Virus record (IMG/VR): IMGVR_UViG_3300045988_130630
Source of the DNA: a virus
Direction: 5' to 3' (one strand)
DNA: 64,000 nucleotides
Positions 35,086 to 39,480 of this stretch are shown in pieces (the stretch's first letter is position 1; each line of letters opens with the position of its first letter). The position numbers and the translations under genes are program-made. The notes under the pieces were generated by a model. The model was not told the origin of the DNA. It saw only the letters and a program-made list of their open reading frames with translations, and ran no database searches.

Positions 35086-35127
35086 AAGGGAGACATTCTT
35101 AACTGAATGTCTCCCTTATTTTTTTTT
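35086..35127. terminator. bidirectional intrinsic terminator at the convergence of the late (+) arm and the LytTR gene (-)
   Basis: 13-bp stem AAGGGAGACATTC / GAATGTCTCCCTT. Flanked by a T-run on the + side and an A-run (U on the - transcript) on the other side. Confidence 0.55.
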
Positions 35128-35842
35128 ATCTAAATGGATTTTTCCATCGTCGATTAATTTCTTCATAGCCTTTTTTAGGAAAGTATAAAACTTCACCATT
35201 TTTAAAAGTTAAATTATCTTTATTCATTATTTTAATTTGATTTAAATTAATAATTAAACTTGGTGGGATAAAGACAAAATCTGGATGATAAACTAAAGTT
35301 CCTATATAATTTTCAAAAGAAGTTTTTAAAGTTTTACTATTTAGAATTTCATTCTCTAAATGACAGCACAAATTTCGTTTTTGAATATCAGCGTATAATA
35401 CTTTATTTAAATCAATTTTTACTTCTCCATTAGGAGTATCTAAATATTTATATTCACGTCTTTTTTCTTCTCTAACTTCATGTAAAATAGAAAAAATTTT
35501 TTCTTTATTAACAGGCTTTTTGACAAAATTAAATGCCTTTACTTCATAAGAAGCTACTCCATAATTTATTTGAGAGGAAACAAAAATTATTTTTCCAATA
35601 TATCCATTTATCCTTAAAAGATGGGCTATTTCAATACCATCCATTTTTTTAAATGTAATTCCTAAAAAAATTGCATCATAATCAATATTAGAGTTAATTA
35701 ATTTTTCAGGATCAGTAAATTTATATACATATCCTGGTAAATTAAAATCTTTAAAATACTGATTTATTATTTCTTCCAATGAGTCATTTTGCTAATCGCT
35801 ATTGTCGCAAACACCTACGATAAAAATTTTAATCACCTTCAT
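35126..35842 (-). CDS. LytTR-family response-regulator-like protein (atypical receiver domain plus LytTR DNA-binding domain, 238 aa)
   Basis: The C-terminal half matches the LytTR pattern (YADIQKRNLCCHLENEI...FIPPSLIINLNQI...FKNGEVLYFPKKGYEEI). The N-terminus is receiver-like (KIFIVG...DAIFLGI..MDGIEIAHLL). ATG 35842, one in-frame TAG (35792-35794); the track ORF began at internal TTG 35779. No adjacent histidine kinase. Confidence 0.6.
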
Positions 35843-35935
35843 TTTGTTTATTTTAGAAAAAATTTTTCTATCTTTATATTCTTTCTATATTATAATTATA
35901 CAAAAATTTTTAAATATTGTAAAATAAAAAATTAT

Positions 35936-35991
35936 AAAGTGTCAAATTTATTTAATTTTAAGTAAGTGAAATTTTTATTCAAAAAGTGTCA
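35936..35991. promoter_or_regulatory. two direct repeats AAAGTGTCA (35936-35944 and 35983-35991) in the divergent intergenic region; candidate regulator binding sites
   Basis: Exact 9-mer repeated 47 bp apart. The second copy abuts a TATAAT at 35997-36002 upstream of the island cassette. Confidence 0.3.
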
Positions 35992-36026
35992 GTAATTATA
36001 ATATATTTACACAAAATAAAAGTCAT

Positions 36027-36065
36027 ATAATAATGAAAGGAAAAGATAAAACCTTTCATTATTAT
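36027..36065 (+). promoter_or_regulatory. 14-bp perfect inverted repeat (ATAATAATGAAAGG / CCTTTCATTATTAT) in the 5' leader of the first island gene
   Basis: Seen directly. 11-nt loop. Ends 9 nt before the GGAGG RBS. No T-tract, so more likely an operator or leader structure than a terminator. Confidence 0.3.
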
Positions 36066-36085
36066 ATTTCTCCGGAGGTAATAAC

Positions 36086-36532
36086 ATGAATACTTATGGT
36101 TATCCATAGCAGTAGTATCCAATAGGTAATAATAGACCTATTTATGGAACAACTGCTACACCTGTGATTCAAAACAATACTGCATAGCGAATTAGACCTG
36201 TTGCTTCTTTAGAAGAGGTTCGAGCTATGAATATAGATTTTGATGGTTCAGTTTTTTATTTTCCTGACTATGCTAATCGTAGAATTTATACAAAACAAAT
36301 AAATATGGATGGAACAGCTTCTATTAATATGTATGAATTAAAGGAAATCCCGAATTCTTCTTAGCCTAATAATGATTATATAACACGAGAGGAATTTAAT
36401 ACTACCTTAACTTCTATTAAAGAAGTTTTTGCATAGATCATGGGATCCAATAACGCGGTTGCGCCGTCCCAAGGGGCGGATTAGCCAGCTCAATAGCAAC
36501 CAGCAGAGAGCAAACCGCAGTTTAATTTTTAA
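36086..36532 (+). CDS. Q/P-rich hypothetical protein (148 aa)
   Basis: ATG behind TCCGGAGG. Seven in-frame TAG. With TAG read as Gln the protein shows YGYPQQQYP and QGADQPAQQQPAESKPQ low-complexity runs. TAA stop. Confidence 0.55.
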
Positions 36533-36544
36533 GGAGAGTTTCAA

Positions 36545-36793
36545 ATGACACAATCAATGAATCCAATGCAAATTATTGCTATGATTAAAAACGGCCAAAA
36601 TCCATAGCAATTAGTTTTATCTATGCTTGAAAGTCAAATGGGCGGAACGCCAATGGGCAATAATTTATTGCAAATGGCACGGAACGGTCAATCCGATGAC
36701 ATTGAAAAATTTGCTCGTAATTTGTTTGAATCAAGAGGTTTGAATTTTGATAAAGAATTTAATAGTTTTAAGTCCCAAATGGGGTTTAAATAA
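36545..36793 (+). CDS. small hypothetical protein (82 aa)
   Basis: ATG behind AAGGAGAG. One TAG (NGQNP-TAG-QLV). TAA stop. Confidence 0.5.
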
Positions 36794-36819
36794 ATAAAAT
36801 TATAGAAAGAGGTTTTGTT

Positions 36820-37701
36820 ATGTTTAATTACAATTATCCAATGAGCACGCCGAATTATTCATTATCTGATATTGCTGCGGCTTCTGGAAATGGCTATCGT
36901 AATAATGATGGCGGAATGTGGGGAGACGGAGCATGGTGGATTATTATCCTGTTCTTATTCTGCTTCAATGGCTGGGGCGGTAATGGCTGGGGTAATAATG
37001 GTGCTAATGGGTCTGGCTTCCAAGGCACTACAACTCGAGAAGAAATCGGTTATGGTTTTAACATGAGCGATCTTAAATCTGGCGTTAATGGTTTAGCTTC
37101 TAGCCTTTGTAATGGTTTTAGTGGAGTAAACACTAATCTTTTAAGTGGTTTTGCTAATCTTGCTGAAACTAATAATGCTAATACTCGCACTTTACAGAGT
37201 GATATTTGTAATATGGGTATGAATAATATGCAAAATACCTTTAGTATCACTCAGGCTATTAATGCTGATACGGTAGCAAGTATGCAAAATACTAATAATT
37301 TAACTCAGCAATTAAATAATATGGCAGCTACTAATGCTCAATGTTGCTGCGAGAATAAACAGTTAATTCAATCCAGTTTTGCTGATCTTAATTATAATCT
37401 TGCTAGTATTGCTTGCCAGAATCGTCAGGCTACCGTTGATGGCGTCCGTGATATTATTGACAACAATAATGCTAATATGCGCTCTATTCTTGACTTCCTT
37501 GTTCAAGATAAAATTGATACTCTTACCAGTGAAAATAGCACTCTTAAAAATTAGATTTCTCAAAATCTTCAAAACGCTTATCTTATTGATCAGTTGTCTC
37601 CAAAAGCAACTCCTGCTTATATCGTTGCTAATCCTTATACTGGTGTTAGCTATACTAGTTATGGATGCGGATATGGTTCAGGATGCGGTTGCAATTCCTG
37701 A
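36820..37701 (+). CDS. N/Q-rich, Cys-rich membrane-anchored protein (293 aa)
   Basis: Track ORF 36820-37554 continues through TAG to TGA at 37699-37701. TM segment AWWIIILFLFCF flanked by GWGGNGWGNNGANG. CCC motif and C-terminal GCGYGSGCGCNS. Confidence 0.55.
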
Positions 37702-37722
37702 TTGAAGAAAGAAGGTTAAATT

Positions 37723-38145
37723 ATGGAAATAACGGCTAATGCTTTACAATCAGTTGCTACTGGTTCTAATGTAGTATTCACTAACACAGCTGTTGCTGGA
37801 AACTGTTCCATACTGTATCGCGAGGGTAGCGGTTTAGTTACCCTCCGCGGTCTTACGAACGGTCAGCGCAGAGCTCGTTTCCGCATTTCATTTGGAGGTA
37901 ATATAGGACTTCCAACCACTGGAACTGCGGGTGCTATTTCTTTGGCTATAGCTATTAATGGAGAGCCAGTTACTACTTCTACAATGATTTCTACTCCTAC
38001 GGCTACTGGATAGTTTAATAATGTTTCACGTGCTTTATTCCTCGATGTGTTAGGCGGTTGTTGCACTCAAATCAGTATTGAAAACACGAGTTCATAGGCT
38101 ATTGATGTTGAAAACGCCAGTTTAATTATCGAGAGAGTGGCATAA
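37723..38145 (+). CDS. BclA C-terminal-domain-like protein (C1q/TNF-like exosporium-protein family), 140 aa, no collagen-like repeats
   Basis: Beta-rich sequence ending ...ENASLIIERVA, closely resembling the BclA terminus ...SASIIIEKVA (recalled from memory). Two in-frame TAG. TAA stop. Confidence 0.5.
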
Positions 38146-38158
38146 GGAGGTTTTTTAA

Positions 38159-38704
38159 ATGTGTGATAAATTCCAAGAAATTAAAAAACAATTATTAACT
38201 CAAGTAGAAGGCCAAATGGCTCATTTAGAATGTGTTGATACAAAGGAAATGGGCGAAGTAATAGATATGATAAAAGACCTTGAAGAGGCTATTTATTATT
38301 GCACTATTACTGAAGCTATGAATGATTTACCTGAAACCACACATTATTATACTGAAAAATATAAATCTCCTCATAAAAAAAGAATCTATAAACCTATGAC
38401 ATATGATTATGATTGGGAAGATTATGATTATGATGAGCACGAATATGAGATGCCAACGAGTGGAAAATCTCGTGAAACCCATGATAGTAGAGAAGGTCGT
38501 AGTGGCGTCCATAGAAAGATGTATATAGAAGCCAAAGAACTTCATAAAGATAAGAGTGTTCAGATAAAGGAGTTAGATAAGTATCTTCAAGAATTAAGTT
38601 CTGATATAGTAGAAATGATTGAAGATGCTTCTAATGATGAACGTTCTTATATGGAGAAGAAAATCTAGGCTTTAGCATCTAAAATTGGATCTATGAATGG
38701 TTAA
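38159..38704 (+). CDS. acidic Tyr/Asp/Glu-rich hypothetical protein (181 aa)
   Basis: ATG behind AAGGAGG. One TAG near the C-terminus. The TAA stop overlaps the start of the next gene. Confidence 0.45.
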
Positions 38705-39017
38705 TATTAATAATAGGAATTGGAGGATACTATTAGTATCTTCCAATCATCCTATGTTAATGCGACCTTCTGGAATATATACTTTAGGTTCTTGTGATGA
38801 TCCTACTTCAACAATTTATATTAATGAAAATATTAGTAATAAAAAATTAAAAAAAGTATTAGCGCATGAACTAACTCATGCTGCCATTTTTAGCTATGAT
38901 ATTTCATTAAAACCAGAAGAAGAAGAATTGATTGCGGATTTAGTGGGAACTTATGGTGAAGAAATTATAAATAATACTAATCTTTTATTTAAATAGATAA
39001 AAAAAATAAGGGAATGA
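38697..39017 (+). CDS. small HExxH zinc-metallopeptidase-like protein (ImmA/IrrE- or SprT-like; about 100-106 aa)
   Basis: Motif KVLAHELTHAAIF. TAG at 38994 is followed by 6 more sense codons and TGA at 39015-39017, so the true C-terminus is ambiguous. Confidence 0.4.
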
Positions 39018-39050
39018 AACTATTTTTGTTTCATTCCCTTATTTTTTTTT
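39008..39050. terminator. bidirectional intrinsic terminator between convergent island genes
   Basis: 13-bp stem AAGGGAATGAAAC / GTTTCATTCCCTT. A-run upstream and T-run downstream. Confidence 0.6.
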
Positions 39051-39051
39051 A

Positions 39052-39480
39052 TTAGTCTTTAAGCGGTAATTTTAAAGTCCTTTCATAGTACTCTTTAGCC
39101 TATCCATTTCCACCTAAACCTGCATATACTTTAAAGAATTCGACTAACTATTCATACTGCCCTGAAGTCATATATCCTTGTTTTAAGAAACTTTGACATA
39201 ACTGAATTAATCTAAATCTATAAGAAGCAAGAATTATTTCAATATATCTTTCACTACTCTTCTTTTCTTCCAATACAAAAGATCTTAAATTATTTAGATC
39301 TTCTTTGATTGGAGCTATATGCTCTTCAATTAATTCTTCTAATTGCTCATCTTTCTTTTCTTCTGCCAATTTTTGATACATTTTCATTTGAGTATAAATA
39401 TATCTACAAAAGGCTAAGAGGCCAGCAGAAATAAGACCAAAAAATATTTCTATAAAATGCTAGGCAATAAAAGTAGACAT
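39052..39480 (-). CDS. membrane-anchored hypothetical protein (142 aa; N-terminal TM helix)
   Basis: ATG 39480 behind GGAAGGAGG. Three in-frame TAG (the track showed only 39148-39387). TAA stop at 39052-39054. Confidence 0.5.

Follow-up and report, generated by a model that had tools for sequence, protein, structure and literature searches.

The stretch of viral DNA considered here, 64,000 nt of IMG/VR record IMGVR_UViG_3300045988_130630 (the window), consists of two converging arms with a small island of genes between them. The + strand arm contains giant structural genes and has a holin gene as its last gene. The - strand replication arm begins at 39558 and encodes a RuvC-like protein, a dUTPase, NrdD/NrdG and DNA polymerase III alpha (Pfam labels taken from relatives). 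In the island, a response regulator gene (RR) faces away from a cassette of six + strand genes, here designated A to F, which are followed by a - strand gene, G. What first looked like the odd island of a single phage emerges from our analysis as a widespread, conserved, portable, lysis-linked and dispensable accessory system. Called under genetic code 15 (TAG = Gln), the genes and signals are as follows.

34671..35081, + strand: holin, last gene of the late arm and neighbour of the cassette in most relatives (phrog_13712 'holin', expect value (E) 6.7e-38)
35080..35123, both strands: bidirectional intrinsic terminator, left boundary; 19-bp stem, T runs on both strands
35126..35842, - strand: RR, orphan LytTR-type response regulator; 238 aa, one TAG
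35936..35944, + strand: AAAGTGTCA box 1, overlapping the -35 element (TTGACA, - strand) of the regulator's own promoter
35983..35991, + strand: AAAGTGTCA box 2, about 37 nt 5′ of the cassette -10 element; proposed site of the LytTR protein
36024..36039, + strand: cassette promoter, -10 element and start region CATATAATAATGAAAG; motif kept in diverged phages
36034..36058, + strand: stem-loop near the 5′ end of the cassette mRNA; in the DNA, a perfect 16-bp inverted repeat (36025-36040 / 36052-36067)
36086..36532, + strand: A, 148 aa, seven TAG
36545..36793, + strand: B, 82 aa
36820..37701, + strand: C, 293 aa
37723..38145, + strand: D, 140 aa, predicted stand-alone C1q/TNF-like (BclA C-terminal-domain-like) jelly roll
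38159..38704, + strand: E, 181 aa, acidic
38697..39017, + strand: F, 106 aa, predicted HExxH zinc metallopeptidase
39001..39047, both strands: bidirectional intrinsic terminator, right boundary, overlapping the end of F; 20-bp stem, T runs on both strands
39052..39480, - strand: G, 142 aa, hydrophobic N-terminal helix
39489..39534, - strand: hairpin masking the Shine-Dalgarno sequence of G, GGAAGGAGG paired with CCTCCTTCC

Packed closely together, genes A to F (36086-39017, + strand) make up one operon, an autonomous late transcription unit that has a promoter of its own and a 5′ hairpin. The 3′ end of E and the start of F overlap by 8 nt, and bidirectional terminators flank the island. Much of this arrangement had been recognized in the original prediction, which was made from the DNA letters alone: the bounding terminators (found 3-7 nt away from the coordinates first given, with stems of 19-20 pairs each and T runs on both strands), the regulator and the six + strand genes, whose termini and compositions are as described when TAG is read as Gln. 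Across the island (34000-40000), the skew of guanine over cytosine (GC skew) turns from +0.22 to -0.22 and the cumulative skew reaches its maximum at 38-40 kb, which places the island at the meeting point of the two transcription/replication arms.

An element of the form TTCATATAAT..TGRRAG lies 5′ of gene A and is common to diverged phages. In many lineages it is followed by a 5′ stem-loop, the stem sequence of which varies by lineage. Here (36024-36067), as well as in loci L004, L042, L044, L045, L078 and L088, the stem-loop sits directly 3′ of the cassette -10 element and the conserved TGRAAG start region forms its 5′ arm. The 3′ arm appears to shift in step across lineages (GAAAGG/CCTTTC, GGAAGAT/ATCTTCC and GAAAAGT/ACTTTTC). 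The hairpin may act as an mRNA stabiliser or as a regulatory element. The idea that the cassette promoter is a general late promoter was rejected, as its motif is matched exactly only once in the whole window.

Throughout the window (1-64000; GC content about 29%), TAG serves as a sense codon. When it is read as such, the longest open reading frames (ORFs) grow from 1329 to 2776 aa and gene fragmentation falls by about half, while TGA read-through brings no such gain. The density of TAG codons is approximately 1-3 per 100 codons in the + strand arm and mostly 0-1 in the - strand arm, where many genes have none. All seven genes from RR to F contain in-frame TAG codons (13 across A to F), and gene A, with seven in 148 codons (4.7 per 100 codons), has the highest density in the window. 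Full-length proteins would thus require the code switch of the phage, an event that a published recoding model links to late lytic expression (10.1101/2021.08.26.457843). No tRNA genes, and hence no suppressor tRNA, were found within the 64-kb window. Contigs with identical island proteins cluster at 195-198 kb, which points to a phage genome of about 197 kb, and this phage is very common in gut metagenomes (hundreds of metagenome contigs).

The cassette itself is not confined to this phage. At 90% clustering, D has 4720 homologues and C 7477, none with a Pfam domain or a name. We examined 105 loci, retrieved mainly via D, of which 17 come from species-representative genomes and 80 from IMG/VR. 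In the great majority, the genes stand in the order A-B-C-D-E-F between the holin and the G, RuvC or dUTPase genes, and this order recurs in most of 29 loci that were retrieved independently via the dUTPase. In total, it is shared by well over a hundred contigs of gut phages. The carriers are phages of 100-240 kb, mostly TAG-recoded, with GC contents of 24-58%, and the typical layout in large recoded phages is holin-[RR]-A..F-G. Because A to F are no less identical between the window and its relatives than the flanking core genes (dUTPase, holin), the cassette is inherited vertically within this clade of large phages, among whose best-conserved syntenic blocks it ranks. The host labels of metagenome-assembled genomes (Mollicutes, Anaeroplasmatales, Bacilli, Clostridia, Methanobrevibacter) were set aside as unreliable, because the contigs concerned are essentially phage-only.

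Outside this clade, small standard-code temperate phages of Clostridia hold parts of the cassette. In L013 and L102, endolysin, holin, A, a B-like gene, C, D and an E-like gene can be read directly one after the other, with a serine recombinase next in L102. In Butyrivibrio virus Ceridwen and Dulem virus 33, A, C and D lie 3′ of the endolysin gene, followed by an integrase in Dulem virus 33. In a further set of standard-code contigs of 45-58 kb (L098, L099-L105), genes for a large serine recombinase and for a small protein resembling sigma region 4 precede the cassette; such contigs may represent integrative elements or phage-plasmids and not typical phages. The protein encoded after the cassette in L099 has a Cas5-like appearance.

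While the whole module is carried by gut phages of Firmicutes, C also occurs in phages of Bacteroidota and of methanogenic archaea. Many Crassvirales have it, under the annotation 'spike protein/glycoprotein' or 'outer capsid protein/viral fiber', and so do C3_41T2LP, an isolated phage of Bacteroides uniformis, and viruses that have been assigned to Methanomassiliicoccales. In the three crAss-like genomes with an annotated holin, C lies 0.8-2 kb 3′ of it. The order is holin, LysB-like protein, one more gene and C in cr109_1, and holin, L,D-carboxypeptidase, small terminase, HExxH protein and C in cr116_1, while cr52_1 has the same LysB-like protein as cr109_1, one gene 5′ of C. The Bacteroides-phage versions also encode an F-like HExxH protein (BLASTP E 0.003), annotated 'PolyVal metallopeptidase', and positional counterparts of A and E with a similar low-complexity character. 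In the TAG-recoded cr52_1 (L138, 5898-6464) and cr109_1 (L139, 5967-6533), the gene in the A position contains 8-9 TAG in 188 codons, an extreme density like that of gene A in the window. Gut viromes abound in these families, yet the six proteins are without a name, a Pfam domain or a paper. Two of the carriers are cultivable, Ceridwen (A, C and D; QHJ73766, 73768 and 73769) and Bacteroides phage C3_41T2LP (C and the F-like peptidase; WLZ21182), making the function of the module directly testable.

Wide conservation goes together with frequent loss. In an unbiased sample anchored on the dUTPase, which comprised 19 near-identical genomes, three have clean and mutually different deletions within the island (35782-38415, 36331-38799 and 35281-36899) at the level of the assemblies, and in two more distant relatives (L133 and L134) the holin directly adjoins RuvC, with no cassette between them. 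The cassette is therefore not essential, although beneficial enough to be widely conserved. In this respect it resembles morons and the lysogenic-conversion units that lie 3′ of lysis genes, with which it also shares its own promoter, its flanking terminators and, in the small relatives, a position after holin/endolysin and before the integrase. It differs from these units in comprising six genes that hold their order across genomes of 24-58% GC, in its vertical inheritance in large phages and, in the window phage, in being translatable only under the phage's own code; the in-frame TAG codons argue against expression of the window cassette from a prophage. Of the moron behaviour that the original prediction proposed to check, dispensability is borne out, but not the idea of a phage-specific island, as A to F form a conserved block. 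The cassette is present in nearly all relatives, and the LytTR gene alone is clearly patchy.

What do these proteins look like? Searches of all island proteins against Pfam, NCBIfam, PHROGs and PADLOC return only RR, the F peptidase and PHROGs with unknown functions. As had been anticipated, Pfam, PHROGs and NCBIfam place none of the six proteins A to F in a named family for head, tail, lysis or replication functions, and the PADLOC models give no match for the eight proteins at E up to 0.01. Literature searches on the six-gene combination, its PHROGs, C1q/BclA in phages and the crAss 'spike protein' returned nothing relevant; a paper that came up there deals with a different tail-spike protein. 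Remote-homology searches and structure prediction, proposed as checks in the original prediction, assign D to a fold, bring F and RR close to known families, find no relatives of known function for A, B and E, and yield a low-confidence model for C.

D is predicted from its structural model to have the C1q/TNF fold of the BclA C-terminal domain. It carries an invariant Cys113-Cys114 pair and terminates in NASLIIERVA, reminiscent of the C-terminal ...ASIIIEKVA of BclA (compare ...ASLIIERVA in D). The proposed likeness to BclA stands for the fold and falls for the sequence: D matches no Pfam family at E up to 1 (neither BclA_C nor C1q), a PDB profile search gives no BclA or C1q match, and the protein has neither a collagen-like region nor an N-terminal targeting region. 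Among its homologues, the best-scoring 150 of 841 representatives at 50% identity (E <= 0.001) are all 77-196 aa long with no added domains. The model was computed for the monomer, and a trimer would be expected from the fold alone. In BFVD and the PDB, this fold is mostly located at the distal end of viral fibres, examples being collagen-like fibrils, cyanophage short tail fibres and the PRD1 P5 vertex protein, and the stand-alone structural relatives of D in BFVD come from gut phages labelled sipho-, myo- and podoviruses. The C-terminal domains of BclA and F-BclA, as well as ExsFA, are proteins of the Bacillus exosporium or endospore appendages that belong to the C1q/TNF superfamily and share the fold of D. 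In contrast to these, D is a globular domain alone with no collagen-like stalk or anchoring motif, is only 15-17% identical to them, has the invariant Cys-Cys pair and is encoded by phages, including phages of non-spore-formers. A beta-rich protein encoded 3′ of C in crAss-like phages was considered as a homologue of D and rejected (hhalign probability 0.2%).

C (N 15.4%, C 3.4%; C-terminal end GCGYGSGCGCNS) consists of a conserved N-terminal peptide, a short hydrophobic helix (WWIIILFLFCF), a Gly/Trp/Asn linker, a helical coiled-coil region of about 180 residues with a CCC cluster, and a Cys/Gly/Tyr tail. It matches phrog_16490 (E 8e-31) and nothing significant in a PDB profile search. The AlphaFold2 model (helices 39-49, 82-132 and 140-259) is of low confidence, with a mean predicted local distance difference test score (pLDDT) of 53. 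The original prediction described C as an N/Q-rich, Cys-rich membrane protein; the composition agrees, and the membrane location is likely but not secure, given a hydrophobic core of only about 11-14 residues and a Kyte-Doolittle 19-mer maximum of 1.47. With its N-terminal anchor and extended helix, its place beside the holin and its dispensability, C is reminiscent of i-spanins and T4 RI-type antiholins. Unlike these, it is about twice as long and has Cys clusters, and it shows no sequence or profile similarity to them and has no lipoprotein partner; no lipobox-bearing ORF is present in, or embedded in, the cassette. C is also encoded by phages of Firmicutes, whose envelope has a single membrane.

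Three further proteins of the cassette are harder to place. The N-terminus of A (Q 9.5%, P 8.1%, N 10.8%) is rich in Q, P, N and Y; a central domain of some 50 aa is conserved, and a C-terminal helix follows, with a terminal Phe in most relatives. A matches phrog_21718 (E 4.4e-7), has homologues in both large and small phages and has no Pfam, NCBIfam or PDB relative; its best PDB profile match, the AbrB-like Abh domain, has an E of 0.25 and was not relied on. B is conserved in synteny with the motif NPQQ ... ARN..G.DFDKEF, and belongs to no family in Pfam, PHROGs or a further family-library scan. E (pI 4.9; Y 7.7%, D 8.8%, E 13.3%), likewise conserved in synteny, has helical N- and C-terminal domains around a Tyr/Asp/Arg/Gly-rich low-complexity linker of variable length, and had no family match in the family-library scans. 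Low-complexity segments are thus contained in both A and E.

F is predicted to be a minimal soluble zinc metallopeptidase (gluzincin) with an HExxH motif and a downstream Glu, closest to selecase and to the M78 peptidases ImmA/IrrE, in keeping with the HExxH peptidase-like protein first proposed. The motif reads HELTH, and a set of 18 diverse homologues shows no variation at H57, E58, H61 and E77. A profile comparison with selecase MJ1213 from the PDB gives an E of 0.0027, and 15 of the 18 family members match Pfam Peptidase_M78 (best E 2.6e-8). The F protein of the window itself falls just below the cut-off for M78 (20.9 versus 22 bits) and just above that for DUF2268 (24.5 versus 23.6). Like the minigluzincins (selecase MJ1213) and the ImmA/IrrE group, it combines about 105 aa with an HExxH motif and a Glu 19 residues downstream; it differs in having no repressor partner beside it and in being translationally coupled to the acidic protein E.

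Beyond the right terminator, G is predicted to be a single-helix membrane protein (Kyte-Doolittle 19-mer maximum 1.74) that also has a coiled coil and, at its C-terminus, a conserved LGGNG domain. It matches phrog_4105 and phrog_4257, both of unknown function, and neither cluster look-ups nor a homologue search with G yielded a name. As the original prediction had it, the ribosome-binding site of G is masked by a hairpin: the Shine-Dalgarno sequence GGAAGGAGG (39489-39497) pairs with CCTCCTTCC (39526-39534) in a 9-bp GC-rich stem, with a minimum free energy of -26.3 kcal/mol (z -4.58) that none of 200 shuffled sequences equals. G accompanies the cassette and the holin in most relatives, and this constant linkage suggests a functional tie. 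Its position varies: in most phages it follows F on the - strand, and in L075, L076, L081, L085, L086 and L096 it precedes A. An iterative search hinted that G could be a holin paralogue, which was rejected as profile drift (BLASTP E 1.1, hhalign 2.8%).

The regulator divergent from the cassette appears to have two domains. Its receiver domain matches Pfam Response_reg (PF00072, E 3.2e-8) with 34.1 bits, above the cut-off of 30.2, and its C-terminal part matches LytTR (PF04397, E 6.1e-4) with 20.4 bits, just under the cut-off of 22.6, over 94 of 98 profile positions. Over its full length, RR matches phrog_8810 (E 2e-25). LytTR-type regulators give the best matches in the PDB and NCBIfam, including, in the PDB, the receiver domains of MrkE and ComE. 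In the motif FLGITF, Gly61 occupies the position of the phospho-acceptor Asp; the aligned residues are the FLD of MrkE and 6m8o and, in ComE, the mutated D58. Related phage regulators of other lineages show D, G or E here. RR is thus a predicted pseudo-receiver, in which Gly61 would make phosphorylation at the canonical site impossible. This fits with the absence of a kinase nearby, also noted in the original prediction: no candidate kinase lies in the island, and in six relatives the gene calls reaching about 10 kb to each side of the D gene include no kinase domain, the remainder of the window having been scanned less than exhaustively. RR resembles LytTR regulators such as AgrA, ComE, LytR and BtsR in combining a receiver with a C-terminal LytTR-like domain and in being encoded divergently from an operon that is probably under its control. 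It differs from them in being phage-encoded, with an in-frame TAG, in the Gly at the phospho-acceptor position and in having no kinase found nearby.

Only four divergent lineages (27-42% mutual identity) have the LytTR gene, each time on the - strand in the slot that separates the holin from A. It is a lineage-specific insert, the variable part of the island. In one close relative (L039, 5402-6168) it is broken into two ORFs, an apparent frameshift or pseudogene that fits with the regulator being dispensable as well. The link between RR and the cassette comes from the promoters. The 9-mer AAAGTGTCA has three exact copies in the window against 0.40 expected, two of which lie 47 bp apart in the 243-bp divergent region, where a promoter-like site for the regulator (- strand, 35945-35916) has 11/12 matches. 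Approximately 35-37 nt 5′ of the cassette -10 element, AAAWGTG is present in 16/16 distinct promoters of phages with RR and in 0/28 of those without it; in the latter, a TTGRCA-like box (TTTTTGGCAAA/TTGACA) takes this position in 16/28, whereas none of the former has it. Because the presence of RR co-varies perfectly with the AAAWGTG box, the LytTR protein is probably an activator of the cassette and an autoregulator, working independently of phosphorylation. On the same co-variation, we propose the AAAGTGTCA boxes as candidate sites of the LytTR protein, in an arrangement that differs from AgrA-type sites: the candidate 9-mer is repeated at 47-bp spacing, whereas the spacing in AgrA-type sites is 12-13 bp. 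Together, RR and its matching promoter box would illustrate concretely how a response regulator encoded by a phage can drive a late operon independently of phosphorylation.

How could these parts work together? We tentatively favour, with a probability of roughly 0.35, that A to F are an accessory late module that operates at the membrane of the infected cell, together with lysis. Once TAG suppression is active, the LytTR protein would bind the AAAGTGTCA boxes, turn on the cassette and autoregulate the divergent promoter. C would then enter the cytoplasmic membrane and oligomerise via its coiled coil, D (as a trimer) and the low-complexity proteins A, B and E would assemble onto C, and F, coupled in translation to E, would process one of the components. 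Alongside the holin, the resulting assembly would tune an envelope or lysis step, such as the timing or efficiency of release, and would serve neither virion building nor spore modification. We favour this because the cassette or C adjoins holin or lysis genes in three unrelated phage groups (large recoded phages, small temperate phages of Clostridia and Crassvirales), and because of the portability of the cassette over 24-58% GC, the occurrence of C across host phyla and the membrane-type character of C and G. Portability of this kind suggests a target that is common to all cells, such as the membrane, or else a self-contained assembly.

Several observations weigh against a role at the membrane in lysis. 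No cassette protein matches a lysis, holin, spanin or exclusion family (Pfam, PHROGs, NCBIfam, PADLOC), and in C3_41T2LP and csAssE-Sib no annotated lysis gene adjoins C. Morons also gather beside lysis genes, so guilt by association is weak here. D lacks a signal peptide and has a fold that elsewhere occurs mostly at the tips of virion fibres. The hydrophobic stretch of C is short for a transmembrane helix, and the model of C is of low confidence. Six proteins exceed the needs of known lysis regulators, and the three deletions are known from metagenome assemblies only.

The same proteins could instead build an accessory virion appendage. A non-essential fibre of the head or tail (a decoration) would then have C as its coiled-coil shaft and D as its trimeric, C1q-like knob, while A, B and E would serve as assembly factors and F as a maturation protease. 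We regard this as conceivable but doubtful. The preference of the C1q/TNF fold for the distal ends of viral fibres (BFVD, PDB), late TAG-dependent expression at the end of the structural arm and the position of C between the small terminase and capsid genes in cr116_1 would all suit an appendage, as would the natural deletions, decoration proteins being typically dispensable. However, the module would have to co-evolve with very different capsids and tails (sipho-, myo- and podoviruses), and D is 40-75% identical over phages with unrelated structural proteins and GC contents of 24-58%. The cassette has its own promoter and terminators and follows the holin, outside the morphogenesis block; the conserved hydrophobic helix of C, with its Gly/Trp flanks, is typical of membrane insertion; and no similarity to solved or annotated virion proteins was found. 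A role in superinfection exclusion, or in another conflict between phages or between phage and host, is less likely still. Here, a membrane-anchored complex would block the entry of competitors or counter host defence, for which a dispensable, frequently deleted and portable unit with a membrane-type protein (C) would be suited, the more so as in temperate phages it sits between the lysis genes and the integrase, the usual slot for such genes. F resembles ImmA/IrrE (M78) and its Bacteroides-phage counterpart is labelled a PolyVal metallopeptidase, two groups that are linked to conflict systems. Genes for exclusion and anti-defence are normally single, fast-evolving and host-specific, though, while this block keeps the order of its six genes over 24-58% GC and shares C among phages of Firmicutes, Bacteroidota and archaea. 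The eight proteins have no PADLOC match, and late, TAG-dependent expression fits poorly with a function that is needed early or in lysogens.

The original prediction had taken the cassette for a lysogenic-conversion unit that adds coat- or exosporium-like proteins to the surface of the host cell or spore, which we now consider very unlikely. Its appeal lies in the fold that D shares with the exosporium proteins BclA, F-BclA and ExsFA, in the low-complexity segments of C, A and E, which are rich in Cys, Gly, Tyr, Gln and Asn like those of coat proteins, and in the classical conversion slot beside the integrase in temperate relatives. The reading fails on the hosts, which include non-sporulating, Gram-negative and archaeal ones, an outcome that the original prediction had itself named as refuting, and it conflicts with the TAG dependence of every gene. 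A, C and D are found in Ceridwen, a phage of Butyrivibrio fibrisolvens, which is a non-spore-former, and the C family in a Bacteroides phage, crAss-like phages and archaeal viruses. As all seven genes need TAG suppression, their proteins would not be made in a standard-code lysogen or sporulating cell, and the expression there that had been envisaged gives way to the late lytic expression of the recoding model (10.1101/2021.08.26.457843). Neither the window nor, in relatives, the roughly 10 kb to each side of the D gene shows an integrase, and D has no Pfam BclA_C match, no collagen-like region and no exosporium-targeting N-terminus.

A more speculative arrangement, which we rate as a long shot, is that of a portable 'split TNF/C1q ligand'. 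In this case, C would be the anchor and coiled-coil stalk, D a separate trimeric head, A and E a cross-linkable low-complexity matrix and F the processing peptidase. Type II TNF-family ligands, such as ectodysplasin A1, offer a comparison, from which the module would differ in that two separate polypeptides supply the anchor-stalk (C) and the head (D), whose interaction we infer. If true, the module would serve the gut environment and not one particular host, coating lysing cells, vesicles or virions with an exosporium-like or lectin-like layer. Such a layer might bind mucus or host glycans, or shield progeny during gut transit, and would represent a new class of phage accessory system. The probability of a new system class is small. 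The parts are new members of known folds and the unit behaves like a moron attached to a lysis cassette, although the six-gene combination has no described counterpart in the literature searched.

Elsewhere in the window, a few genes deserve mention. As the holin has no endolysin gene beside it, the product of 51706-52545 (- strand) may be the missing peptidoglycan hydrolase. This protein of 279 aa has an N-terminal signal or anchor helix, zero TAG and phrog_11037 (unknown function) as its sole match, and its motif AGILGNMMAECGG...GICQWS is reminiscent of phage tail-lysozyme domains. Two of the giant ORFs of the + strand arm encode proteins of 2774 aa (954-9278, 83 in-frame TAG) and 2581 aa (23173-30918, 26 TAG), the relatives of the latter showing a weak LRR_5 match. 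In the replication arm, NrdD (42194-44530) is a code-15 ORF of 778 aa compared with 669-691 aa in the gene calls of relatives, and DNA polymerase III alpha (45158-48994) has 1278 aa here compared with 1329 aa in most relatives; these length gaps may be due to differences in start sites or to indels.

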